IMG/VR virus record: IMGVR_UViG_2903405734_000002 | Span: 1-64,000 of that record | Origin: a virus | Taxonomy: Duplodnaviria > Heunggongvirae > Uroviricota > Caudoviricetes | Length of the DNA: 64,000 bases | Strand: one strand, 5' to 3' | Shown: positions 2,223 through 27,514 of the stretch, in pieces | Layout: each line of letters opens with the position of its first letter | Position numbering within the stretch: position 1 is the stretch's first letter | Notes under the pieces: model-generated | Told to the model about the DNA's origin: nothing | Databases searched by the model: none | Seen by the model: the letters and a program-made list of their open reading frames with translations, nothing else | Made by a program: the position numbers and the translations under genes

Positions 2223-2494
2223 AGATTTGAGAGAGCGCCTGTTACTGGCTTGAACCATGAGCCGATCAAAAATAGCTTTCGGCTCATTGTATGAGCCATT
2301 CAAAGCAGCCAATCGGCTCATCTGGTGAGCCATTGAAAATGGTCGGTCGGCTCACCTAATGAGCCAATGAGGGGTTATGGTCGGCTCACGCCATGAGTCG
2401 CGCACCGATGGTTATCGGCTTGGATCATGAGCCGATCAGTGCTCGCTATCGGCTCACTATATGAGCCAATCAATTTCTGTGATAGGATTGGCGG
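2223..2494 (+). repeat. Tandem array of 34-bp units (7 full plus about 1 partial), each carrying the inverted repeat TGAGCC...GGCTCA
   Basis: ATGAGCC (GTGAGCC in unit 3) recurs at 2257, 2291, 2325, 2359, 2393, 2427 and 2461, an exact 34-bp period. Each unit contains TCGGCTCA, which forms the palindrome TCGGCTCA-N4/5-TGAGCCGA with the next unit. The last unit is the fic start codon and first codons. Confidence 0.85.
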
Positions 2495-3666
2495 GTATAA
2501 GTTGGCGGGATTTGGAGCTATTGATGGAAAAATGGATCTGGAAAAATGAAAAATGGCCTCAATTTCACTGGTCTGGCGCTGCTATCAACCCTCTTTTGAG
2601 GGAGGTAAGAAACAAGCTGGGATTGTTGCTTGGGATGACATCTGCGTCTGCATTTGATGGAAGCCTGGACTCTCAGGCCCTCGATACTTTGCTGGCTAAC
2701 ATTGTGGCGAGTTCCGCAATTGAAAATGAGAGACTGAATGCTGAGTCAGTTCGGTCTTCCCTTGCAAAGAGGTTCGGGATTTCATCTGAGCGCACATACC
2801 CAGTAAGCGAGAGCTCGGAAGGCTTGGCAGAAATGCTGTTCGATGCCTTGAGTCGAGACGGCATAGAGAGACCACTAACCAAAGAGCGGCTGTTCCGCTG
2901 GCATGAATGTCTATTTCCAGGATGTGATGATCTCATTATCGGCAGCAGGGTCTCTCCTGGTAAGCTCAGAGGGCCAGAGGTAATGCAGGTGGTGTCTGGC
3001 AGGATAGATCGGCCTGTAGTGCATTTTGAGGCTCCTCCTCGCGATGGTCTTGAGGAGCAGCTAGATGAGTTTCTTGCCTGGTTTGAAGAAAGCCGGAGCG
3101 AGCAAGAGCAAGACCCGTTGCTAAGGGCCGGAATAGCGCACCTGTGGTTCGTTACATTGCATCCCTTTGATGATGGGAATGGAAGATTGACCAGGATGCT
3201 CACTGATTTGGCGCTAGCCCAGGCAGATCATCATGTTGTCCGCCTGTACGCCATGTCTGTTTCCATCCTTGATAAGCGAGCGGAGTATTACTCAGCACTC
3301 AAGAAAGCTCAGAGAGGTACTACAGACATAACATCATGGCTAGAGTGGTTTTATGCTACGCTGATCCACACTCTCGATGATGCACAGAAAAAAGTTTCAA
3401 CTACTGTTGCAAAGGCCGAATTCTGGCTTAAGAACCGAAGCCTCTCACTCAAGCCTGAACAGTTGAAGGTCTTGAATCGAATGTTAGATGGCGGAGAGAA
3501 GGGGTTTGAAGGCGGAATTAGCGCATCCCAGTACCAATCTGTCGCCAAGGTAAGTAAGGCAACCGCAACAAGGCACCTTGCCGAGCTTTTGGAAAATGGA
3601 TGTTTAGTGAAAGGTGCTGGCGGCGGCGGCAGCTCCAGGTACTTCATAAACACAAGCAAAAAGTAA
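2461..3666 (+). CDS. Fic/DOC family protein (adenylyltransferase-type) with C-terminal wHTH
   Basis: Canonical Fic motif HPFDDGNGRLTR. 401 aa. Confidence 0.9.
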   Translation: MSQSISVIGLAGISWRDLELLMEKWIWKNEKWPQFHWSGAAINPLLREVRNKLGLLLGMTSASAFDGSLDSQALDTLLANIVASSAIENERLNAESVRSSLAKRFGISSERTYPVSESSEGLAEMLFDALSRDGIERPLTKERLFRWHECLFPGCDDLIIGSRVSPGKLRGPEVMQVVSGRIDRPVVHFEAPPRDGLEEQLDEFLAWFEESRSEQEQDPLLRAGIAHLWFVTLHPFDDGNGRLTRMLTDLALAQADHHVVRLYAMSVSILDKRAEYYSALKKAQRGTTDITSWLEWFYATLIHTLDDAQKKVSTTVAKAEFWLKNRSLSLKPEQLKVLNRMLDGGEKGFEGGISASQYQSVAKVSKATATRHLAELLENGCLVKGAGGGGSSRYFINTSKK

Positions 3667-3730: not shown

Positions 3731-4363
3731 TTATATTTCTTTTTTCAGCTTACAGCATCTTTGCTGAACAGAATATAGCGTTCTCTCTGGGAAATAAGCA
3801 TGAACCTCAGTCCAGTTCTTTCCTTGCTTAATCAATTCCTTGATTTTGATATCCTGCTCCTCATCCCACGGATTTTCCTTGGTGTATTTCTTTCTTGCAC
3901 AGATCTTTGAAACCTTTGCTTTTGTAAGTCCAGTGGCCTCTGCCATCTCTGCATGAGTCATGGTTTTATAGTTGTTCTTAATAAAATCCATTTTTTTCTC
4001 ATGTTCTGGATCTTGTGCAAGGGTTTGATATTTTTTTAGTCCCAGCTTTCTACATCTGTTTCTAACATCAAGATCTGTTCTTCCAAGGGCTACTCCCATT
4101 TTTCCATGAGTTAGCTCATTGATGTTGTCTGTGATAAATTTATCTTCTTTATCCGTCCAGGCATTCTTACTTCCCTTTACGGCATAAACAACATCCTTTA
4201 TTAAACCCATCTGCCTGCACATCAAAACGACTTCTCGATTCGTTCTTTTTAGTGCATCGGCCATTTCAGCTGTCGTCATTTTCTTTACATTTTCAACAAG
4301 GAATTGTCTTTCCTCGTTTGTAAAGTCAGTAACCTCTGTTAATCGAACACCTAATTTAGCCAC
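3731..4363 (-). CDS. DNA-binding protein with four Myb/SANT-like HTH repeats
   Basis: Four roughly 50-aa repeats, e.g. WTDKEDKFITDNINELTHGKMGVALGRTDLDVRNRCRKLGL and WDEEQDIKIKELIKQGKNWTEVHAYFPERTLYSVQQRCCKL, matching the Myb pattern W-x-EED...GRT...QCR...L. Confidence 0.6.
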   Translation of the reverse strand: MAKLGVRLTEVTDFTNEERQFLVENVKKMTTAEMADALKRTNREVVLMCRQMGLIKDVVYAVKGSKNAWTDKEDKFITDNINELTHGKMGVALGRTDLDVRNRCRKLGLKKYQTLAQDPEHEKKMDFIKNNYKTMTHAEMAEATGLTKAKVSKICARKKYTKENPWDEEQDIKIKELIKQGKNWTEVHAYFPERTLYSVQQRCCKLKKEI

Positions 4364-4507: not shown

Positions 4508-5632
4508 TTATTTTTTGGGTTTTGAGACGATAATGAGCTCTTCGCTTGAATCAGTTTTGCTTAGGGCGTACTTGTATCCTCCGGCAGAGTAGACGGTTGC
4601 CTCTCTATTGAACGAAGACATCACCTTGGCCGCCTCCAGGGGGACTGGAAGACCATCGCTCCTATAGCTAAACACGATTGTTGCATTAGGCCACCTGTTG
4701 CAGATCGCGGTGAGCTCGGCAAGTGCGGTATCGGGCTTGAGCCAGGCACTGGGCTTGCGAGAGACAGGGCGATGTGGATACCTTTCATCGCCAGATGAGA
4801 ATAATGAATAATCACAAAGGCCATCAAGGAAGTGATAGAAGTCGCTGTAATCAACAGAAACTCCCTTGCCATTGATGTAAGGCGGGTCTAGATAAATCAG
4901 ATCATAATCATCGGCAAAATCACTGAGCGATGCAGAATTAAAGCCAGTAACTCTTGACTCGCTACATTCAGAAATTTCCCCCTTAAAGTTCTTTAGCTCA
5001 TTAATGCACTTAATTGCATGCTTTAGGATTGGGGTTTCCCAAGTCATTTTGTTACCAAAACTTCTCTTTACTTCCTTGGTGCGCATATCCAGATTAGAGC
5101 GGTGGAACAAGTTGTATGGGCGTTTTTTGGTTAGTGCTTGGCCCACGGCATAAATATAAAGACTACGCTCAAAATCATCGTATTTATCGATATTCTGACA
5201 GAATCGGTCAATCTCTGTGTTTTCTGACTCGATAAAAAAGATGCCTTTGTAATTTTTGGATACCAGGCCATCAGAAACAGGGAGCCTGTAAAGAAGATCT
5301 TCAAGGTCTTTTTTGAAGTCAATCTTCTCAATTTTTTCCTTTGTGAAAGTCTGAAAAACCTTAGCAGTATTTTGGCTGTAGAGCATAAAGTCATTTGATG
5401 AGACTTCTTTGCCAATTGTCCTGAACAGCAGAGAGACCACGCCAGAGCCAGAGAACATATCGAGTGGCCTGGTGTATTCAAGCTTGCCTAATGCCGATGC
5501 CAATTCGGAAAGGATCTTGCGCTTTGACCCCTGGAATCGTGTAGCTGGAAACGGCGGGAGAGGGTACTTTTCTGGGTTAAGGAAATAGATTTTTTTCCCG
5601 ATCTCATGAAATTCGGTTTTGTTATTATCCAA
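4508..5632 (-). CDS. N6-adenine DNA methyltransferase, Dam-like (D12 class)
   Basis: Motif I FSGSGVVSLL preceded by RFQGSKRKI (compare Dam KWAGGKYPL). Catalytic DPPY (LIYLDPPYINGKG). Confidence 0.85.
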   Translation of the reverse strand: MDNNKTEFHEIGKKIYFLNPEKYPLPPFPATRFQGSKRKILSELASALGKLEYTRPLDMFSGSGVVSLLFRTIGKEVSSNDFMLYSQNTAKVFQTFTKEKIEKIDFKKDLEDLLYRLPVSDGLVSKNYKGIFFIESENTEIDRFCQNIDKYDDFERSLYIYAVGQALTKKRPYNLFHRSNLDMRTKEVKRSFGNKMTWETPILKHAIKCINELKNFKGEISECSESRVTGFNSASLSDFADDYDLIYLDPPYINGKGVSVDYSDFYHFLDGLCDYSLFSSGDERYPHRPVSRKPSAWLKPDTALAELTAICNRWPNATIVFSYRSDGLPVPLEAAKVMSSFNREATVYSAGGYKYALSKTDSSEELIIVSKPKK

Positions 5633-17090: not shown

Positions 17091-18686
17091 ATGAAAAAGA
17101 ACAGTGGTTTTACTCTTTTAGAGCTACTCTTGGTGATTGGCCTGTCTACAGCCATAGCCGTTGTGGCCTTTCAGGACAAAATGCTTGAGACCGAGCAGTC
17201 ACAGGCAAGACAGCTTGGTATGGAGCTCTTTCAGTACAACTCCGCCGTACAAAACTATCTTGCTCATGAATCAGGAAACAAGAATCCGGCATCTTTGAAC
17301 GGGGTAAAGCACAGTGGTGTAAACTGGCTTAAATCCTCATCATCCTGTAGTGGCGGCCAGGCTGTGAAGGAGTGGCTTGCCTGTAGATTCCTTCAAGCGC
17401 AAGGTGGAAAAACCACTTTTGGTCGCCTGTCTTTCAACACAACCCTCTCGTTCTCAAGCTCTGAGGGTTTGAGTGCAACAACAGTGGTTAGCCCGCTTGA
17501 GTTCAATAAAAATGGGGTGATGGAGAGAAGGGGTGATCTGAGTGGGTTGGCGGCTCTCGTTGCTTCTGGTGCTTATTCGGTTAAGGACAAACCTATGGCG
17601 GCCAACTCTCAGGATAGCTCCATCGTTTACTGCCCAGAAACCGCATCAAAATCGCCGAGCATGGCCGCGATTTGTAATGGCAGGGATGGGTCTATTGTGA
17701 TGTTTAGCCGCAACTTGAGCGAGTCTGATAGATGGCTTCGCGTTGATCATGGCAACGTGATGCAAAACACTCTTGAATTCCGCACTGGCAGTACAACTCC
17801 TGAGTCCCTTTCTGAGATCCAAAAGATTGACTCTGTTGCTCGTCAAATCCGCAACGTTGCCAGGATATACAACCTTGGCGATGGCAATACCAACGGAGAA
17901 AATGACAATCTTTATCTTGGAAAAAGAAAAGGCGAGTTCGCCAAAACATCTGCGACACTTAAAAGTGACGCTGTAATTGTTGATGCTGATCAGGAGATTC
18001 TTGGGAAGTTAATTGTCCAAAGTGATGTTATTGCAAGAGGAAATATAACATCTGAGAAGGACATTCTTGCCAAGGGCAACATAACATCTGAGAAGGATGT
18101 TCTTGCTAAGGGCAACATAACAGCTGAAAAGGATATTCTTGCAATTGGAAACATTACCTCTAAGGGCGGTCTAAAAGTAGATAAAGATGCCTTAATAAGT
18201 GGCAATACGACCACATCAAAAATAATTGATGCTAATGACGGAAACTACTATGTTGACATGAATGGATCATCAAAACTAAATGTTCTTGTTGCAAATCAGA
18301 TAGAATCAACAGGATTTATTCTTCCTGGCGCATTTAAACCAGGAGAAAACTGTTCAAGAAATGGGGCTATTGGCAGAAACTCAGCAACTAATGGGCCTAT
18401 GCTTTGTGTTAACAATAAATGGGAAAGTAATGAATCCAAGATAGGGCCTTGGGTTGCTTATAGTCCAAATGTAACCTATACAGCCCCATCAGATGGTTTT
18501 ATCACTGCTAAGACACGGCACAACAATTGGGTTTCTATATCTGTTGGTGGTTCAGAGCGCTGCCATGTTGCAGCACGAGATAAATACGGCCAAGGACAGG
18601 TAAGCTGTACAAGCATTGTTGCCAAAGGAGAGAAATTCAGGGTTACTGGTGGCATTCAATATATTTATTTCAGGCAGATCGGGTAA
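17091..18686 (+). CDS. large type IV pilin-domain protein (paralogue 1 of 3)
   Basis: Prepilin leader MKKNSG|FTLLELLLVIG with E+5. Contains an internal 33-bp (11-aa) AKGNITSEKDIL repeat x3.5. Cys-containing C-terminal domain. Confidence 0.8.
   Translation: MKKNSGFTLLELLLVIGLSTAIAVVAFQDKMLETEQSQARQLGMELFQYNSAVQNYLAHESGNKNPASLNGVKHSGVNWLKSSSSCSGGQAVKEWLACRFLQAQGGKTTFGRLSFNTTLSFSSSEGLSATTVVSPLEFNKNGVMERRGDLSGLAALVASGAYSVKDKPMAANSQDSSIVYCPETASKSPSMAAICNGRDGSIVMFSRNLSESDRWLRVDHGNVMQNTLEFRTGSTTPESLSEIQKIDSVARQIRNVARIYNLGDGNTNGENDNLYLGKRKGEFAKTSATLKSDAVIVDADQEILGKLIVQSDVIARGNITSEKDILAKGNITSEKDVLAKGNITAEKDILAIGNITSKGGLKVDKDALISGNTTTSKIIDANDGNYYVDMNGSSKLNVLVANQIESTGFILPGAFKPGENCSRNGAIGRNSATNGPMLCVNNKWESNESKIGPWVAYSPNVTYTAPSDGFITAKTRHNNWVSISVGGSERCHVAARDKYGQGQVSCTSIVAKGEKFRVTGGIQYIYFRQIG
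18046..18180 (+). repeat. In-frame 33-bp coding tandem repeat (about 3.5 copies)
   Basis: aagggcaacataacatctgagaaggatgttcttgct-like units encoding (A)KGNITSEKDIL. Confidence 0.7.
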
Positions 18687-18719
18687 TCCCCTTTGCAGCA
18701 TATTTAATTAGGGGACTTA

Positions 18720-20594
18720 ATGAAAAACAAAGGGTTTACTCTTCTAGAATTATTGTTGGTTATTGGCATCACAACATCAATGGCTATTGTTTCGTTTCAA
18801 GATAAGATGCTTGAGACGGAGCAATACCAGGCAAGAAAATTAGGGATGGAGTTGTTTCAATACAACTCCGCTGTTCAAAACTATCTGGCACATCAATCTG
18901 GAAACCCTAACCCTAAATCACTGGAAAAAACGCACATTGGTGTAAAGTGGCTTAAGTCCACCAGCTGCGGCGGAGAGAGTGATAAAGAGTGGTTGTCTTG
19001 TAATTTTCTTGGGTACACAAATGGGAAAACCTCGTTTGGCAGGCTCTCGTTTAGTACAACCATTGTGTATGAGAACAATAACGTTCTTACTGCTAGAACA
19101 GTTATGAGCAAGCTGAATGTCGGCACCGCTGGTAAGAACCAGGAGAGGGCTGATCTCAGTGGTCTTGCAGCTATGGTGGCATCAGGGGCCTATGCCGTCA
19201 GTGAGGATGGAAGAGCTGCCAGCGCTCAAGATAGCACCATCGTTTACTGCCCAGATACATCCATTCCAACAGCCAGCACAGCGGCTTGTCAGGGTGAGAA
19301 AGGGGTAATAGTGATGATTGGCCGAAATCAGAGCTCATCAGACAGATGGCTAAGGGTTGATCATGGTAACGTGATGCAAAACGCTTTGGAATTTCGGACA
19401 GGGGACTCCACGCCATCAACGCAATCAGAGCTTTCTGCAATAGATGGATTCAATAGACAGATCCGTAATGTAGCTCGAATTTACAACCTTGGAGATAGCA
19501 ATAGTAATTCATCTAGTGACAACCTTTATCTCGGAAAGAAATATGGCAATGCAGCAAAAAGCATGGCTACTCTTGCAAACAATGCAGTTATTGTTGATGC
19601 CGACCAAGAAATTCTTGGAAGGTTGGTTGTTTCTTCGTCTATTCAGGCCAAAGGCAATATCTCCACAGAAAAAGATATTAGTGCAAAAGGAAATATCTCA
19701 TCTGACGGCAAGATTACAGCCAATCAAGATATTGAATCAAAGAAAAACATCTATGCGAATGGAAATCTTATTTCAGCAGGTGATGCAAACATTGGAAATA
19801 CTCTTAATGTAACAAGGGATGCCGCGATTAATGGTGCAGCAACGATAAACGGAATTGTTACAGCAAAAAGTAAAATGGCTGTTGGCGATGATGCCACGTT
19901 CAATGGAAACATCTTCGGAAAGAAAAGTATTTTTGTAGATCAAAACGGAACATTCAACGGCATCGTTTCAACTCAAAGATTGGTTGATGCCAATAATAAT
20001 GGATATTATGTAGACCCCAGCGATACATCAAGACTAAATAGCGTGAATGCGAACTATCTAAAATCATATGGAGATATCTCTTCTGATGGAAGTATTTATG
20101 CAAATGGAAATATGAGTGCTAATGGCAATGTATCATCAGGAAACATTGCATCAGGAAAGTATATTCTTCCAAACCAGGTTGTTGGCGTAAATAGTTCCTG
20201 TGCGGGCCTTCCTTCTGGAACAATCGCAAAAAGTCCGCAAGGAGAGATTTTAAGTTGCCAATCTGGAATTTGGGCGGGTTCAAAAAGTGACATGCAGACT
20301 TTTTCTGGCAATAGCTCAATTAGCGGATTGACGCCATACAAAAAATATCTTGTCACAGTGTATGGCATTACTGATGACAAAGGGGAGAGAGGTGCGTGGT
20401 TAGGGCCTGTTAAAGTAACCAACAGCAGTGGGGGAGTAATTGATACTACAAGTAGTCTTGATATAAACTGGATGGATGGAAATACCCCTCAGAGTGCTGT
20501 TTTTATAATTAACGCTCCATATGATGGTGTTATTTATGGATATACAGATAATGACAATGCTGCGCTTAATATGAAAGCAGTTTCCCTTAATTAA
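18720..20594 (+). CDS. large type IV pilin-domain protein (paralogue 2 of 3)
   Basis: Leader MKNKG|FTLLELLLVIG. N-terminal about 300 aa is conserved with paralogue 1 (RADLSGLAA.VASGAY, DRWLRVDHGNVMQN, IRNVARIYNLGD). The C-terminal half diverges. Confidence 0.8.
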   Translation: MKNKGFTLLELLLVIGITTSMAIVSFQDKMLETEQYQARKLGMELFQYNSAVQNYLAHQSGNPNPKSLEKTHIGVKWLKSTSCGGESDKEWLSCNFLGYTNGKTSFGRLSFSTTIVYENNNVLTARTVMSKLNVGTAGKNQERADLSGLAAMVASGAYAVSEDGRAASAQDSTIVYCPDTSIPTASTAACQGEKGVIVMIGRNQSSSDRWLRVDHGNVMQNALEFRTGDSTPSTQSELSAIDGFNRQIRNVARIYNLGDSNSNSSSDNLYLGKKYGNAAKSMATLANNAVIVDADQEILGRLVVSSSIQAKGNISTEKDISAKGNISSDGKITANQDIESKKNIYANGNLISAGDANIGNTLNVTRDAAINGAATINGIVTAKSKMAVGDDATFNGNIFGKKSIFVDQNGTFNGIVSTQRLVDANNNGYYVDPSDTSRLNSVNANYLKSYGDISSDGSIYANGNMSANGNVSSGNIASGKYILPNQVVGVNSSCAGLPSGTIAKSPQGEILSCQSGIWAGSKSDMQTFSGNSSISGLTPYKKYLVTVYGITDDKGERGAWLGPVKVTNSSGGVIDTTSSLDINWMDGNTPQSAVFIINAPYDGVIYGYTDNDNAALNMKAVSLN

Positions 20595-20606
20595 AAGGAT
20601 AATAAA

Positions 20607-22415
20607 GTGAAAAATAAAGGGTTTACGCTGCTTGAGTTGCTGCTGGTGATTGGTATCACTACATCAATGGCGGTAGTAACTTTTCAAGACAAGATGCTTG
20701 AGACAGAGCAGTCTCAGGCTCGCCGACTCGGCATGGAGATCTTCCAGTACAACTCCGCCGTTCAGAACTATCTGGCCCACCAATCGGGCCAGCAAAACCC
20801 TGCATCAGTGGCAGGTACATTCAAAGGGGTGAATTGGCTTAAGTCCACCAGCTGCGGAGGAATGGCTGATAAGGCATGGCTGTCGTGCAATTTCCTGAGT
20901 CACAGTGGGGGGAAAACCACTCTTGGCCGTCTCGGCTTTACCACTGAGATTAAGTATGACCCCTCAGTTGGGTTAACTGGCCGAACAGTGATGGATAAGC
21001 TCTCTCTCGGGAGTGGGAGTAGTACACAGGAACGTGCTGACCTATCTGGCCTGGCCGCACTGGTGGCATCTGGTGCCTATGCTGTCAGTGAAGACGGAAA
21101 AGCAGTGAGAGCTCAGGATAGTACAGTTGCCTACTGCCCAGACACAGCAGGGACATCTCCTATCAATGCAGTATGCCAAGGCGATAAGGGCAGCATCGTG
21201 ATGCTCAGCCGCAATCTCAGCGCTGCTGACCGCTGGCTCAGGGTTGATCATGGCAACGCCATGCAGAATGCACTGGAATTCCGCACAGGCGATCCTACGC
21301 CTGCCAGCCAAACTGATATCCAGGCTATCGATTCCGTCAGTCGCCAGATCCGCAACGTGGCTCGCATCTACAATCTCGGCAACAGTAACAGCAATGGCGA
21401 AAGCGACAACCTCTACCTGGGCAAAAGGTACGGGAATGCAGCCAAGAGCATGGCAACACTCCCTAGCAACGCCGTTGTCATCGATGCCGATCAGGAGGTG
21501 CTAGGGAAGCTGGTCGTAGCTGCATCTATTGATGCAAAAGGGGATATAAGCACAAAGGCCAACTTCAAGGCAGACGGAAGTGCGATCATCAAAAAAGACA
21601 TTAGCGCAGGAAGTGACCTATCTGTTGGAGGAAAGACAACTCTTGCCGGAGATGTTGCGGCTCAGAGTAATGTCTCTATTGGCAAATCACTGTCAGTGGC
21701 CGGAGAGATTGAAGGTAAGCAAAACCTCAAAATTGCCAATGGAGGTAACTTTGGTGGGGATGTTATCGCCAAGAACATTACTGCTGGAGGCAAGATTGCA
21801 GGCGGCACACTCAATATCAGTGGTTCTGGCTACTTCAATGGCGAGCTTTTCGCTCAACGGCTTGTTGACTCAAATGATCCAGCCTATCTGGTTGACCCCA
21901 ATAATGAGTCAAATTTCAATGAGGTGCGGGTTACAACACTAAATGCTCGGGGCAACGTCAATGCTACCAATGTCAACGCAACCAATGAGGTGAGGAGCAG
22001 GACGGTCATTGCCAATGGTGATACCGTTGCTGGTGGCTATGCAGCAGGCCAATATTTGCTATCAAACGGCACAGCTTGGGAAGGTGGGTCATGTCATGGT
22101 GTAGCACATGGGGCAATCTCAAAGGATCCATCTGGCGGACTTCTTACTTGCAAGGGCGGTGTTTGGAAGAGTCCATCGCAAGCGATGCAGATCACCACTG
22201 CTTATGGGCCTGTCTCCGCTTGTAGAGGAACCTCAACAGCAACATGCCCTGCTGGCACCAAAGTTATTTCTGGAGGTCATCACTGGCAGGGTTCTTGTGG
22301 GTGTGGAGAAGAGCACCGCTTTATCCTCAATAGTGCCCCTAATGGAACAAGAGCCTGGAGTGCTCAGATGGAGTGTTCTCATGTTATGGCGGTAGCCATA
22401 TGCGTGACAGAATGA
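20607..22415 (+). CDS. large type IV pilin-domain protein (paralogue 3 of 3), visibly higher GC
   Basis: Same leader and core as paralogues 1 and 2. Distinct Cys-rich C-terminus. Nucleotide composition is clearly more GC-rich than copies 1 and 2. Confidence 0.8.
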   Translation: MKNKGFTLLELLLVIGITTSMAVVTFQDKMLETEQSQARRLGMEIFQYNSAVQNYLAHQSGQQNPASVAGTFKGVNWLKSTSCGGMADKAWLSCNFLSHSGGKTTLGRLGFTTEIKYDPSVGLTGRTVMDKLSLGSGSSTQERADLSGLAALVASGAYAVSEDGKAVRAQDSTVAYCPDTAGTSPINAVCQGDKGSIVMLSRNLSAADRWLRVDHGNAMQNALEFRTGDPTPASQTDIQAIDSVSRQIRNVARIYNLGNSNSNGESDNLYLGKRYGNAAKSMATLPSNAVVIDADQEVLGKLVVAASIDAKGDISTKANFKADGSAIIKKDISAGSDLSVGGKTTLAGDVAAQSNVSIGKSLSVAGEIEGKQNLKIANGGNFGGDVIAKNITAGGKIAGGTLNISGSGYFNGELFAQRLVDSNDPAYLVDPNNESNFNEVRVTTLNARGNVNATNVNATNEVRSRTVIANGDTVAGGYAAGQYLLSNGTAWEGGSCHGVAHGAISKDPSGGLLTCKGGVWKSPSQAMQITTAYGPVSACRGTSTATCPAGTKVISGGHHWQGSCGCGEEHRFILNSAPNGTRAWSAQMECSHVMAVAICVTE

Positions 22416-22526: not shown

Positions 22527-22602
<76 letters not shown>

Positions 22603-22605
22603 GAG

Positions 22606-22681
<76 letters not shown>

Positions 22682-22683
22682 AT

Positions 22684-22759
22684 TCTCTCGTAGTTCAGTC
22701 GGTAGAACGGTGGACTGTTAATCCATATGTCACAGGTTCAAGTCCTGTCGAGAGAGCCA
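22684..22759 (+). tRNA. tRNA-Asn(GTT)
   Basis: Acceptor TCTCTCG/CGAGAGA, anticodon loop ctGTTaa, CCA encoded. Confidence 0.85.
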
Positions 22760-22816
22760 AATTTCTTCTGTCGATGCATTTCGGCAAGAAGAGAGCCGAA
22801 AGGCTCGCCTGTTTGA

Positions 22817-22892
22817 TGCGAGGTAGAGCAGTTGGTAGCTTACGGGCCTCATAAGTCCGTGGTCGCTGGTTCGAGTCCAGCCCTCGCTTCCA
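22817..22892 (+). tRNA. tRNA-Met(CAT), with 1:72 mismatch
   Basis: Anticodon loop ctCATaa, T-arm GCTGG-TTCGAGT-CCAGC, CCA encoded. Positions 1 and 72 are T:T. Confidence 0.8.
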
Positions 22893-22898
22893 AGATTT

Positions 22899-22975
22899 GG
22901 GATTGTAGCTCAGTTGGTTAGAGTGCTGGCCTGTCACGTCAGAGGTCGCGGGTTCGAGCCCCGTCAGTCCCGCCA
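22899..22975 (+). tRNA. tRNA-Asp(GTC)
   Basis: Acceptor GGGATTG/CAGTCCC, anticodon loop ctGTCac, CCA encoded. Confidence 0.85.
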
Positions 22976-22980
22976 TACAT

Positions 22981-23064
22981 GCGAATGTGGTGAAATTGGT
23001 AGACGCAGGACATTTAAAATGTTCCGCCTTTGGCGTGTCGGTTCGATCCCGACCATTCGCACCA
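22981..23064 (+). tRNA. tRNA-Leu(TAA)
   Basis: Acceptor GCGAATG/CATTCGC, anticodon loop ttTAAaa, long variable arm, CCA encoded. Confidence 0.85.
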
Positions 23065-24644: not shown

Positions 24645-24817
24645 TCAAAAAGCACACCAAAAGCCAGACAAATGTCTGGCTTTTTTTGATTAAAAATATA
24701 TCAAATAAAGAACGAAGGCGAAAAAACGAAAAAAAACAGAATAATTAGATTGACCATAAATAACTAACTTGGTATAGTGTGTTCATCAGGTGAGGGGAAC
24801 ACCCCAAAATACTAGAT

Positions 24818-24945
24818 GACTTGAGACTTGCATATAGTGCGACTAGGCAAGCCGCCATAGAGGATTTATGGTGTTTAGATTATTTAAGACTTGTATATAG
24901 TGCGACTAGACAAGCCACCATAAGTGATGTATGGTGTAGTAAATT
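24818..24945 (+). repeat. Direct repeat, 2 x about 66 bp, each with a hairpin (gccaccata...tatggtg)
   Basis: ttgagacttgcatatagtgcgactaggcaagccgccatagaggatttatggtgt repeats as ttaagacttgtatatagtgcgactagacaagccaccataagtgatgtatggtgt. A related hairpin recurs in the terminator after the tRNA. Confidence 0.7.
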
Positions 24946-24952
24946 TATAAAT

Positions 24953-25029
24953 GGCCCCGTATCACAATCGGTTAGTGGAGCGTCCTCATAAGGCGTAACG
25001 TCTCGGTTCGAGTCCGAGCGGGGCCACCA
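24953..25029 (+). tRNA. tRNA-Ile2-like (anticodon CAT, lysidine type)
   Basis: Acceptor GGCCCCG/CGGGGCC resembles E. coli ileX/ileY (GGCCCCT). Anticodon loop ctCATaa. CCA encoded. Strong terminator hairpin follows at 25046-25097. Confidence 0.75.
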
Positions 25030-27146: not shown

Positions 27147-27514
27147 GGGGCTGACCTGGTTTCGACAGGGTATAGGTGCCTGAATTGCGAGTCGTGTGTT
27201 ATGTATCACACGTAAATCCATGCATAAAACAAATAATCGCTAACGACGAAAGCTTCGCTGTCGCCGCCTAATAAGCGGTAGACAGCCTCTCCACTCAGGG
27301 TTTCTCAGGGCCTAGAGAACATGGAGAGTCAAGTCTCCCTGAGATCGCGTGGCGGCTTCTGTCAGTAGCCAAGACGCTAAACGTAACCTGACTCGCCGGA
27401 GGAATGATTTGCCCATCAATCATCTTCCTGGCTAAAAAAATGATGAGGCTATGCTCGTAGATGTTCAACGCACTGGTGTTCTGGACGCGGGTTCGATTCC
27501 CGCCAGCTCCACCA
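27147..27514 (+). ncRNA. ssrA: tmRNA (SsrA), tag peptide ANDESFAVAA
   Basis: 5' GGGGCTGAcctggtttcgac. Resume codon gct then AACGACGAAAGCTTCGCTGTCGCCGCCTAA. 3' tRNA-like end GGACGCGGGTTCGATTCCCGCCAGCTCCACCA. 368 nt. Confidence 0.95.

Follow-up and report, generated by a model that had tools for sequence, protein, structure and literature searches.

A seven-unit inverted-repeat array before a viral fic gene, probably an expanded operator of the adjacent Fic protein

Fic proteins with a DNA-binding domain and the array of the viral locus

Fic proteins with a C-terminal winged helix-turn-helix (wHTH) domain form a very large family (at least about 8,000 clusters), and the DNA-binding side has been studied in three of these proteins only: CccR, CbFic2 and SoFic. 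The class II Fic protein CccR of Yersinia pseudotuberculosis, whose C-terminus carries a helix-turn-helix (HTH), represses its own promoter; its site consists of inverted repeats, AGATAATCAT-N26-ATGATAATCT, near the -35 and -10 elements, dimerisation is needed, and the HTH helices of the dimer lie 70 Å apart (PMC9755527). CbFic2 binds DNA via its HTH, DNA binding induces its dimerisation, and according to the proposal made for it, the monomer AMPylates and the DNA-induced dimer deAMPylates; it was studied with random DNA only, and the authors left sequence specificity open (PMC10628234). SoFic (mloA) of Shewanella oneidensis is a dimeric Fic-wHTH protein with specific binding within 100 bp upstream of its own start codon, for which autoregulation has been proposed and no site defined (bioRxiv 10.64898/2026.07.09.737422). 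Here, a 64,000-nucleotide stretch of viral DNA (IMG/VR record IMGVR_UViG_2903405734_000002, positions 1 to 64,000; hereafter the window) was analysed, in which a fic gene is preceded, at 2241-2494, by inverted short elements with a strict 34-bp period, as seen by reading of the sequence and by repeat search. Probably, the adjacent fic gene is autoregulated through this array, an operator expanded to seven units where two are usual, and the most likely binder of the array would be the DNA-binding domain of Fic itself, by which the protein would control its own expression. Such a reading is favoured because autorepression of a Fic-HTH protein (CccR) via promoter palindromes has been published.

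The plus half-sites of the array, TGAGCCRAT, start at 2258, 2292, 2326, 2360, 2394, 2428 and 2462, and the minus half-sites, ATCGGCTCA, at 2278, 2312, 2346, 2380, 2414 and 2448. The two kinds alternate in exact register over 2258-2470, the 34-bp unit being TGAGCCRAT-N11-ATCGGCTCA plus 5 bp, while a second palindrome, TCGGCTCA-N5-TGAGCC, spans each unit boundary. Five of the seven units are intact (units 1-4 and 6), unit 5 is degenerate, and unit 7 is without a good minus half-site. The repeat search recovered six copies (repeat family D2), all spaced by 34. As many as 11 of the 47 TGAGCC/GGCTCA hexamers of the window fall within 210 bp, where 0.12 would be expected (Poisson P about 1e-18); outside the array the motif is at chance level within the window, and no paired TGAGCC-N15-19-GGCTCA or GGCTCA-N4-6-TGAGCC was found elsewhere in the 64 kb. 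Tandem Repeats Finder did not report the array, because the DNA between the half-sites is not repeated and only the half-sites repeat. The array was also found in independent assemblies of related loci (L001, L002, L003, L145 and L211), and it is therefore no assembly artefact. The leader and the units are as follows:

2241-2256, + strand: leader of module 1, GTTACTGGCTTGAACC, with the -35-like TTGAAC at 2250-2255; duplicated at 2411-2426 (repeat family D1)
2257-2290, + strand: unit 1, TGAGCCGAT-N11-TTCGGCTCA; identical in L002
2291-2324, + strand: unit 2, TGAGCCATT-N11-ATCGGCTCA; in L002 the half-sites are identical and 7 of 16 other positions are changed
2325-2358, + strand: unit 3, TGAGCCATT-N11-GTCGGCTCA; missing from the six-unit alleles L002, L003 and L145
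2359-2392, + strand: unit 4, TGAGCCAAT-N11-GTCGGCTCA
2393-2426, + strand: unit 5, degenerate, TGAGTCGCG-N11-ATCGGCTTG; L002 and L211 retain this degenerate form
2411-2426, + strand: second leader copy, GTTATCGGCTTGGATC, the 3' part of unit 5, with the -35-like TTGGAT at 2420-2425
2427-2460, + strand: unit 6, TGAGCCGAT-N11-ATCGGCTCA; counterpart of the first unit of the canonical two-unit fic operator
2461-2494, + strand: unit 7, TGAGCCAAT-N11-ATAGGATTG; minus half-site decayed; counterpart of the second, fic-proximal canonical unit
2496-2517, + strand: candidate fic signals picked by eye, a putative TATAAG at 2496-2501 and a putative Shine-Dalgarno GGAG at 2514-2517

The 63 bp at 2241-2303 share 79% identity with those at 2411-2473, at an offset of 170 bp (five units), and the similarity includes the 16-bp leader. 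By its sequence, the array looks like two "leader plus two units" modules (units 1-2 and 6-7) that enclose units 3, 4 and part of unit 5.

In a preliminary description of this DNA, ATGAGCC had been said to recur perfectly at 34-bp spacing in seven copies. The register stands, and the exact heptamer is present in five of the seven, with GTGAGCC at 2325 and ATGAGTC at 2393; TCGGCTCA, ascribed there to every unit, also occurs in five, its place being taken by TCGGCTTG in unit 5 and by ATAGGATTG in unit 7. The palindrome between neighbouring units was confirmed, as it is read across the unit boundaries, and so was the statement that the array does not belong to the clustered regularly interspaced short palindromic repeats (CRISPR). 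A CRISPR array has repeats of 23-50 bp, unique spacers of similar length and, usually, cas genes; here, the conserved parts are 9-bp half-sites of alternating orientation with 5- and 11-bp gaps, and no cas gene is found among the flanking open reading frames (ORFs).

The features of the fic gene and of its product are listed below:

2524-3666, + strand: fic, encoding a 380-aa class II Fic protein (Pfam; full-length match to 8CIL, CbFic2, E-value 2e-80)
N-terminal part of Fic, + strand: DUF4172 (Pfam)
2710-2727, + strand: inhibitory motif SSAIEN, within fic
3160-3195, + strand: Fic motif HPFDDGNGRLTR, within fic
3517-3651, + strand: C-terminal wHTH of Fic, with the recognition helix SKATATRH at 3553-3576 and the wing at 3601-3651 (clade alignment)

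The HxFx(D/E)GNGRxxR motif, the N-terminal (S/T)xxxE(G/N) inhibitory helix and the C-terminal wHTH are all present in this protein, and the inverted-repeat half-sites (2258-2470) lie in the gene's own promoter region, about 54 bp before ATG 2524. The longest ORF opens at ATG 2461, which is a mere opening of the frame, with DUF4172 beginning at residue 25. Since DUF4172 is so offset, M-x(1-8)-W-I-W is the beginning of Fic orthologues, the gene called in L001 (a contig of 98% identity) is 380 aa with a start equivalent to ATG 2524, and GGAG (2514-2517) lies upstream of that codon, the start of fic was placed at 2524. Two earlier statements, namely that the last unit is the initiation codon of fic and that the array is a duplication of the 5' coding end of the gene, are withdrawn; the array ends about 54 bp upstream of ATG 2524. 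In the plasmid collection, the match was to the fic coding region only (65-69%).

The canonical module and the pairing of recognition helices with half-sites

One genome per species (185,579 genomes) was scanned for TCGGCTCA-N5-TGAGCC-N15-TCGGCTCA, a pattern of 22 fixed bases for which about 0.07 chance matches are expected by our estimate. The pattern was matched in at least 120 loci; seven viral contigs carry it as well. Among the matches listed, the genera are mostly Pseudomonas, with Halomonas, Erwinia, Yersinia, Luteibacter, Stenotrophomonas, Aeromonas, Pseudidiomarina and others also represented. The usual form comprises two units, that is, TGAGCCGAATA-N7-TATTCGGCTCA, N5, and then the same again, 34 bp apart. 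In 71 fic-adjacent gammaproteobacterial loci among the matches listed, an orthologous DUF4172-Fic-wHTH gene starts 11-48 bp (mostly 22-28) past the last half-site, its product being an orthologue of mostly 45-60% identity, and the first unit lies between promoter-like -35 and -10 hexamers. GAATA/TATTC extensions, an outer fourth half-site and a TGGACG/TAGACA hexamer just upstream are conserved though not required by the pattern. In a relative (L147), the promoter scan revealed TAGACA-17-CATTAT straddling unit 1, which fills the spacer and overlaps the -10 element; because unit 1 lies between -35 and -10, the module sits on the fic promoter. The offset of TTGAAC to the first half-site of the window array equals that of the conserved TGGACG/TAGACA in the canonical operators (consensus of the 71 loci; TAGACA-17-CATTAT in L147). 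The array is not peculiar to this genome, and its basic two-unit module is widespread in Gammaproteobacteria.

For a view of the operator that did not depend on the DNA motif, fic homologues were collected by protein from viral contigs, and their upstream regions were read. The homologues at 55-59% identity carry the TGAGCC module, and those at about 40% identity have a similar operator layout with other half-sites, either of a TGCGG type (TGCGGnGAWT / AWTCnCCGCA, e.g., 10+9+10+5 = 34 bp in L160) or of a GAAGCG type (TGAAGCGATT / AATCGCTTCA in L157 and L158); a unit spacing of 33-34 bp is found at many of these loci. Alignment of the wHTH domains and tabulation against the half-sites revealed that the recognition helix SKATATRH goes with TGAGCC (4/4), S-x-D-[TS]-A-x-R-D with TGCGG (about 28/28), and SR[AT]TAYRE with GAAGCG (5/5), a partition without exception in the protein-retrieved set. 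SKATATRH is the helix of the window Fic and of all 16 sampled motif-linked orthologues. Such covariation is hard to explain unless the wHTH of Fic reads the half-sites.

The same correspondence allowed a prediction. The closest solved structure to the window Fic, CbFic2 of Coxiella burnetii (8CIL), has the helix SRTTAYRE, and GAAGCG-type sites were therefore predicted upstream of its gene. The region upstream of CbFic2 / CBU_0822 (L206, about 545-600) has the form GAAGCGATT-N8-AATCGCTTCA-N5-CGAAGCAATT, more fully aGAAGCGATT-aatgtTAT-AATCGCTTCA-caata-CGAAGCAATT, and ends 13 bp before the ATG, so the prediction held. TTAAAA-17-TG-TATAAT straddles the first site, with the TG-extended TATAAT at the border of loop and minus half-site, and the same upstream arrangement was seen in two Coxiellaceae relatives (L208 and L210). 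These repeats are a candidate sequence-specific site of CbFic2. Taken together, the position of the module in the 71 loci, the covariation of half-site and helix and the CbFic2 prediction point to the C-terminal wHTH of Fic as the best candidate binder, which the preliminary description had named for testing. Its view that dimer-type (inverted-repeat) binding sites of fic are stacked here is also essentially supported.

The covariation also bears on the very unlikely explanation that the inverted repeats act in RNA, as hairpins with 9-bp stems in the fic leader that would steer stability, termination or translation. The array region does fold better than shuffled sequences (-120 versus -91 kcal/mol, z = -5.7), and the canonical second unit should be transcribed in the leader; any run of inverted repeats, however, gives such a z-score. 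Rfam gave no match in the array region, and no terminator-like sites were found there. Within the clade, it is the sequence of the stems that is conserved, and compensatory pair changes are lacking; the changes between clades track the recognition helix of the protein, which RNA structure does not require. Moreover, transcription likely starts downstream of the first unit, which is located in the promoter spacer.

The array of the window is unusually long. Two or three of the genome loci listed (about 2%) have three units and none is longer. When 241 million metagenome records were scanned for three consecutive perfect-core units, 15 loci were found, 14 of them with exactly three units; the only longer array was the six-unit one of L145, a fic-deleted relative of the window. 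Compared with a similar array of Aeromonas sobria (L099), the metagenome loci L136 and L139 hold a perfect 34-bp duplicate, and unit gain by duplication is seen directly in them. In the TGCGG clade, 6-8 half-sites per operator are common, against 13 in the window; operators with many sites are thus nothing unusual in this family, and the window stands at the far end of a continuum.

Relatives of the locus, loss of fic and alternative explanations

Relatives of the locus were obtained from Logan assemblies of the Sequence Read Archive and from one metagenome contig; an exact-protein look-up with a 174-aa ORF that adjoins the array, and later with its 98% variant, led to five further assemblies. 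L001 matches the window in layout and has seven units. In L211, fic is present and the units again number seven, with unit 1 cut to 24 bp and unit 2 altered to ATCAGCTCA in its minus half-site. L002, L003 and L145 have six units, unit 3 being missing, and no fic. Hence, the region is variable in length, as had been supposed: seven units, seven with one truncated, or six. By blastn, the fic-less alleles correspond to a deletion of window positions 2484-3613, with the break inside unit 7, and they retain the last ~50 bp of fic. In view of this 3' remnant, fic was lost secondarily, and the array is no independent element that received fic.

Between the window and L002, 3 of 90 half-site positions differ, as against 24 of 80 other array positions (Fisher P = 1.3e-6); between the units inside the window, the corresponding differences are 51/270 and 158/240. 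These substitution patterns indicate that the half-sites are under selection and that the spacers drift. As the spacers between units are randomised (158/240), the expansion is old.

These figures are pertinent to the improbable view that only units 6-7 act as the operator and that units 1-5 are a functionless leftover of module duplication. Such a view would accommodate the degenerate unit 5, the cut unit 1 and the altered minus half-site (ATCAGCTCA) of unit 2 in L211, the unit lacking in L002, and the fact that two units are the norm elsewhere. Neutral relics, however, should decay evenly, and the half-sites of units 1, 2, 4 and 6 are conserved between diverged alleles whose spacers are ~30% changed; the half-sites have survived an old expansion (158/240 spacer positions different), and no other lineage with more than three units was found in the 241 million metagenome records. 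A vestigial distal array is contradicted by this half-site conservation, except possibly for unit 5, or for units 1 and 2, which vary in L211.

The four features that flank the array and fic are as follows:

1622-2146, - strand: 174-aa ORF, near-orphan and divergent from fic (ORF list)
2174-2201, - strand: strong sigma-70-like promoter, TTGACT-16-TATAAT with a TG extension, 11/12 matches (promoter scan)
3731-4363, - strand: Myb-like 210-aa protein, with four stretches matched to the PHROG "D5-like transcriptional regulator"
4508-5632, - strand: D12-class adenine methyltransferase, next after the Myb-like gene

The minus-strand promoter serves the 174-aa ORF and lies in an AT-rich stretch, 43 bp from the array. 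The 174-aa ORF adjoins the array in every relative (L001-L004 and L211), also where fic is lost. It has no Pfam or PHROG match; one 90% cluster of homologues was found, and only 17 weak remote matches among 1.8 billion representatives, and its AlphaFold2 (AF2) model from the single sequence (mean predicted local distance difference test score, pLDDT, 36) is too poor for a fold search. The Myb-like gene adjoins the fic locus in the relatives, and in L001 the methylase gene does so too.

Some other protein, be it the Myb/D5-like regulator (3731-4363), the 174-aa protein or a host factor, might bind the array and mainly control the 174-aa gene. We give this little credence. It would suit the persistence of the array and the 174-aa gene together after fic deletion, the strong 174-aa promoter 43 bp away and the match of the Myb-like protein to phage transcriptional regulators. 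Still, in other genera the 71 fic-linked loci do not have either neighbour conserved beside the motif, homologues of the 174-aa protein are few (a near-orphan), and the covariation is with the helix of Fic. That the array is tied to the 174-aa ORF rather than to fic, as L002 and L003 without fic might imply, was rejected in view of the fic 3' remnant, which marks a plain deletion of 2484-3613.

A further proposal, that the array is a palindrome of the repetitive extragenic palindromic (REP) kind or a miniature inverted-repeat transposable element (MITE), a plasmid-type iteron origin, a centromere, or a site-specific recombination site with an 11-7-11 core by which fic would travel as a cassette, is scarcely credible. 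The element is widespread, an AT-rich tract adjoins the array, the fic-loss breakpoints lie inside a unit both in the window lineage and in Pseudomonas, and some copies are near tRNA ends in prophage contigs. On the other hand, nearly all fetched 8-kb loci hold one array, as does the window, no rep, par, recombinase or REP-associated tyrosine transposase (RAYT) gene lies beside the array, and the fic-less allele that keeps the last ~50 bp of fic is an ordinary deletion with no empty attachment site. REP elements and their composites (bacterial interspersed mosaic elements, BIME, and REP doublets forming hairpins, REPIN) are scattered in many copies per genome, often with a RAYT transposase; the array is a single locus in 64 kb, and the only transposase-like gene nearby is a TnpB gene beyond the 174-aa gene. 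The preliminary description had also considered a widespread REP-like element unrelated to fic. "Widespread" is apt for the two-unit module across Gammaproteobacteria; "REP-like" and "unrelated" are not, as the module is tied to fic. Iteron origins and partition sites of the sopC or parC type are tandem binding sites beside a rep or par gene; here there is no rep or par, the neighbours are the near-orphan ORF, fic, the Myb-like regulator and the D12 methylase, and the partner across genera is fic. Movement of a fic cassette by 11-7-11 recombination was rejected in view of the fic 3' remnant, with no second site downstream of fic and no recombinase.

Loci with the motif and without fic were seen in other genera as well. 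In eight Pseudomonas loci (L012, L089, L093, L094, L097, L107, L110 and L113), exactly 1.5 units (minus, plus, minus) adjoin a conserved stretch, …GTGATTyCC…CCGATTGTTAAAAAAC, and in several of them an ORF of ~270 aa comes next (DUF2135 by Pfam in L012), with fic on the far side in other species. We read these loci as probable cases of fic loss; the breakpoint is inside the fic-proximal unit, as in the window lineage. In Aeromonas sobria (L099, 3535-3597) and in the metagenome loci L136 (4970-5066) and L139 (1668-1764), a second TGAGCC array of two or three units lies ~1 kb past the 3' end of fic and ~210 bp upstream of an H-NS-like ORF (1978-2400 in L139; C-terminal TWTGQGRMPKAI), while the fic gene of L099 has its own 1.5-unit operator. 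The 1.5-unit motif with no fic nearby was also found in the chromosome of Citrobacter sp. OP27 (L104, 405-452) and in the prophage-like L125 (8692-8731) and L127 (1044-1083); in L104 and L127 a tRNA 3' end comes before it, and in L104 and L125 a Phage_holin_8 ORF comes after it.

Several points count against an expanded fic auto-operator. The promoter scan of the array region called no plus-strand promoter for fic, and the canonical -10 position is poor in the window units (CGCTAT, AGCTTT). The fic-deleted L002, L003 and L145 keep the array with intact half-sites, which would mean a recent deletion or else a role of the array in addition to fic autoregulation. In about 45 of the motif loci listed, the fetched 8 kb hold no fic, some of these loci being cut by the locus edge, and the other contexts are mixed; the second array before the H-NS-like gene means that the motif is not exclusively a fic auto-operator, and Fic-type operators may control genes besides fic. 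CccR has another half-site, AGATAATCAT, and one pair 26 bp apart (10-N26-10). Binding of the TGAGCC half-sites by the window Fic is predicted by comparison, and the placement of a dimer on the convergent rather than the divergent pair, as supposed below, is drawn from the 70 Å of a distant homologue.

Proposed mechanism and comparison with known Fic systems

For Fic binding, its stoichiometry, repression and the role of the additional units, we infer the following arrangement. One Fic homodimer would occupy each unit, with one wHTH (SKATATRH) per half-site of the convergent pair TGAGCCRAT-N11-ATCGGCTCA; the TGAGCC and GGCTCA cores of the pair are about 23 bp apart centre to centre, or ~78 Å, near the 70 Å of CccR. 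At the unit junction, GGCTCA-N5-TGAGCC, the cores lie 11 bp apart, i.e., one helical turn, and neighbouring dimers would therefore stand side by side, making cooperative binding possible. At the canonical loci, unit 1 fills the -35/-10 spacer and overlaps the -10 element, and unit 2 would cover the transcription start and the leader, so that bound Fic would block RNA polymerase and shut off its own promoter. Repression of fic by binding is suggested by the promoter overlap in L147 and L206 together with CccR, and, as with CccR, autorepression would restrain a potentially toxic enzyme.

In the window, units 6-7 correspond to the canonical pair, with the decayed last half-site 33 bp before the ATG, inside the 11-48 bp range. 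The promoter-operator module would have been duplicated (2241-2303 resembling 2411-2473) and more 34-bp units added, so that as many as seven dimer sites would separate fic from the divergent 174-aa gene, of which units 1-5 would make up to five extra ones, reaching towards the divergent promoter. The extra units might make repression tighter, more switch-like or more cooperative, might control the 174-aa gene, or might hold Fic back in the form of DNA-bound dimers. The last option can be taken further, in a possible though rather unlikely direction, namely that the array is a chromosomal scaffold for up to seven side-by-side Fic dimers which sets the level of free Fic. This idea draws on the proposal that CbFic2 AMPylates as a monomer and deAMPylates as a DNA-bound dimer; a high-affinity array would act as a sponge or switch for enzyme activity, and unit number would be an evolvable threshold. 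The survival of the array after fic loss and the array at the H-NS-like gene would fit a trans role of Fic-type regulators beyond self-repression.

The remainder of the window holds other features. A partial tRNA, tRNA-Lys(ctt) and tRNA-Glu(ttc) at 1-251 are followed directly by a TnpB / IS605 OrfB gene (314-1525, - strand); no TnpA is in the ORF list. The G+C content, 0.50 over the first 2 kb, has dropped to about 0.40 by 4-6 kb. A six-tRNA cluster, a further tRNA-Met and a transfer-messenger RNA (tmRNA; tag ANDESFAVAA) are located at 22527-23064, 24953-25029 and 27147-27514, respectively, with a tandem repeat of 63 bp x 2 just upstream of the tRNA-Met (24813-24937). Three large consecutive ORFs occupy 17091-22415; the first has a pilin-like N-terminal methylation motif and 36/72-bp coding repeats (18019-18161), and the second and third have weak bactofilin-domain matches. 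Many other large ORFs of the window have no Pfam match.

Taken alone, the feature in the window is an expanded operator and not a new kind of element, and the value of the analysis lies mostly in a family-wide, testable DNA-recognition code, less in the single array. The operator principle is already published (CccR); the sequence family, the geometry and the recognition code appear to be undescribed. In open-access papers and bioRxiv, no paper was found on the TGAGCCGAATA module or on the correspondence of helix and half-site, and literature matches to the motif string are unrelated to Fic, e.g., the tandem-repeat promoter of Aspergillus cyp51A. The comparison yields three helix-to-half-site pairings and an operator geometry common to them (inverted pair, N5 junction, 33-34-bp period), and it offers CbFic2 a candidate specific site; the seven-unit array, the longest found, is a natural substrate for questions of cooperativity and of the AMPylation/deAMPylation switch.

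Like the window Fic, CccR belongs to the class II Fic proteins and has an inhibitory helix at the N-terminus and an HTH at the C-terminus, its promoter carries inverted repeats, and the wide half-site spacing of the window fits the 70 Å between its HTH domains. The two proteins are distant: 7XUX (380 aa), which we take to be CccR, matches the window Fic at an E-value of 7e-5 over the Fic core only. Unlike in CccR, the half-site of the window is TGAGCCGA(A)T, with pairs 11 bp apart (7 bp between the full 11-mers) and a 34-bp repeat, and there are seven units instead of one operator; binding is demonstrated for CccR and predicted for the window Fic. The possibility of the same site as in CccR was therefore set aside on account of half-site and spacing, and CccR is an analogue in a different Fic clade. 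SoFic is, as proposed here for the window Fic, a dimeric Fic-wHTH protein with its own upstream region as the target; it is distant as well (E-value about 1e-7, Fic core only), and no repeat array is reported for it. CbFic2 aligns with the window Fic over the full length, and the DUF4172 dimer interface, the Fic domain and the wHTH are common to both, whereas its half-sites are of the GAAGCGATT type, with the helix SRTTAYRE, not TGAGCC, and number three, without an array. The closest counterpart is the canonical TGAGCCGAATA-N7-TATTCGGCTCA module, which shares with the window the half-site core, the 34-bp period, the orientation to fic and the recognition helix. It differs in the half-site extension (GAATA versus RAT(C/G)A in the window), in the distance of the last half-site from the start codon (mostly 22-28 bp, versus 33 bp for the decayed and 53 bp for the last intact one in the window), and in having two units, or three in about 2% of the genome loci listed and in 14 metagenome loci, as compared with the seven units of the window.

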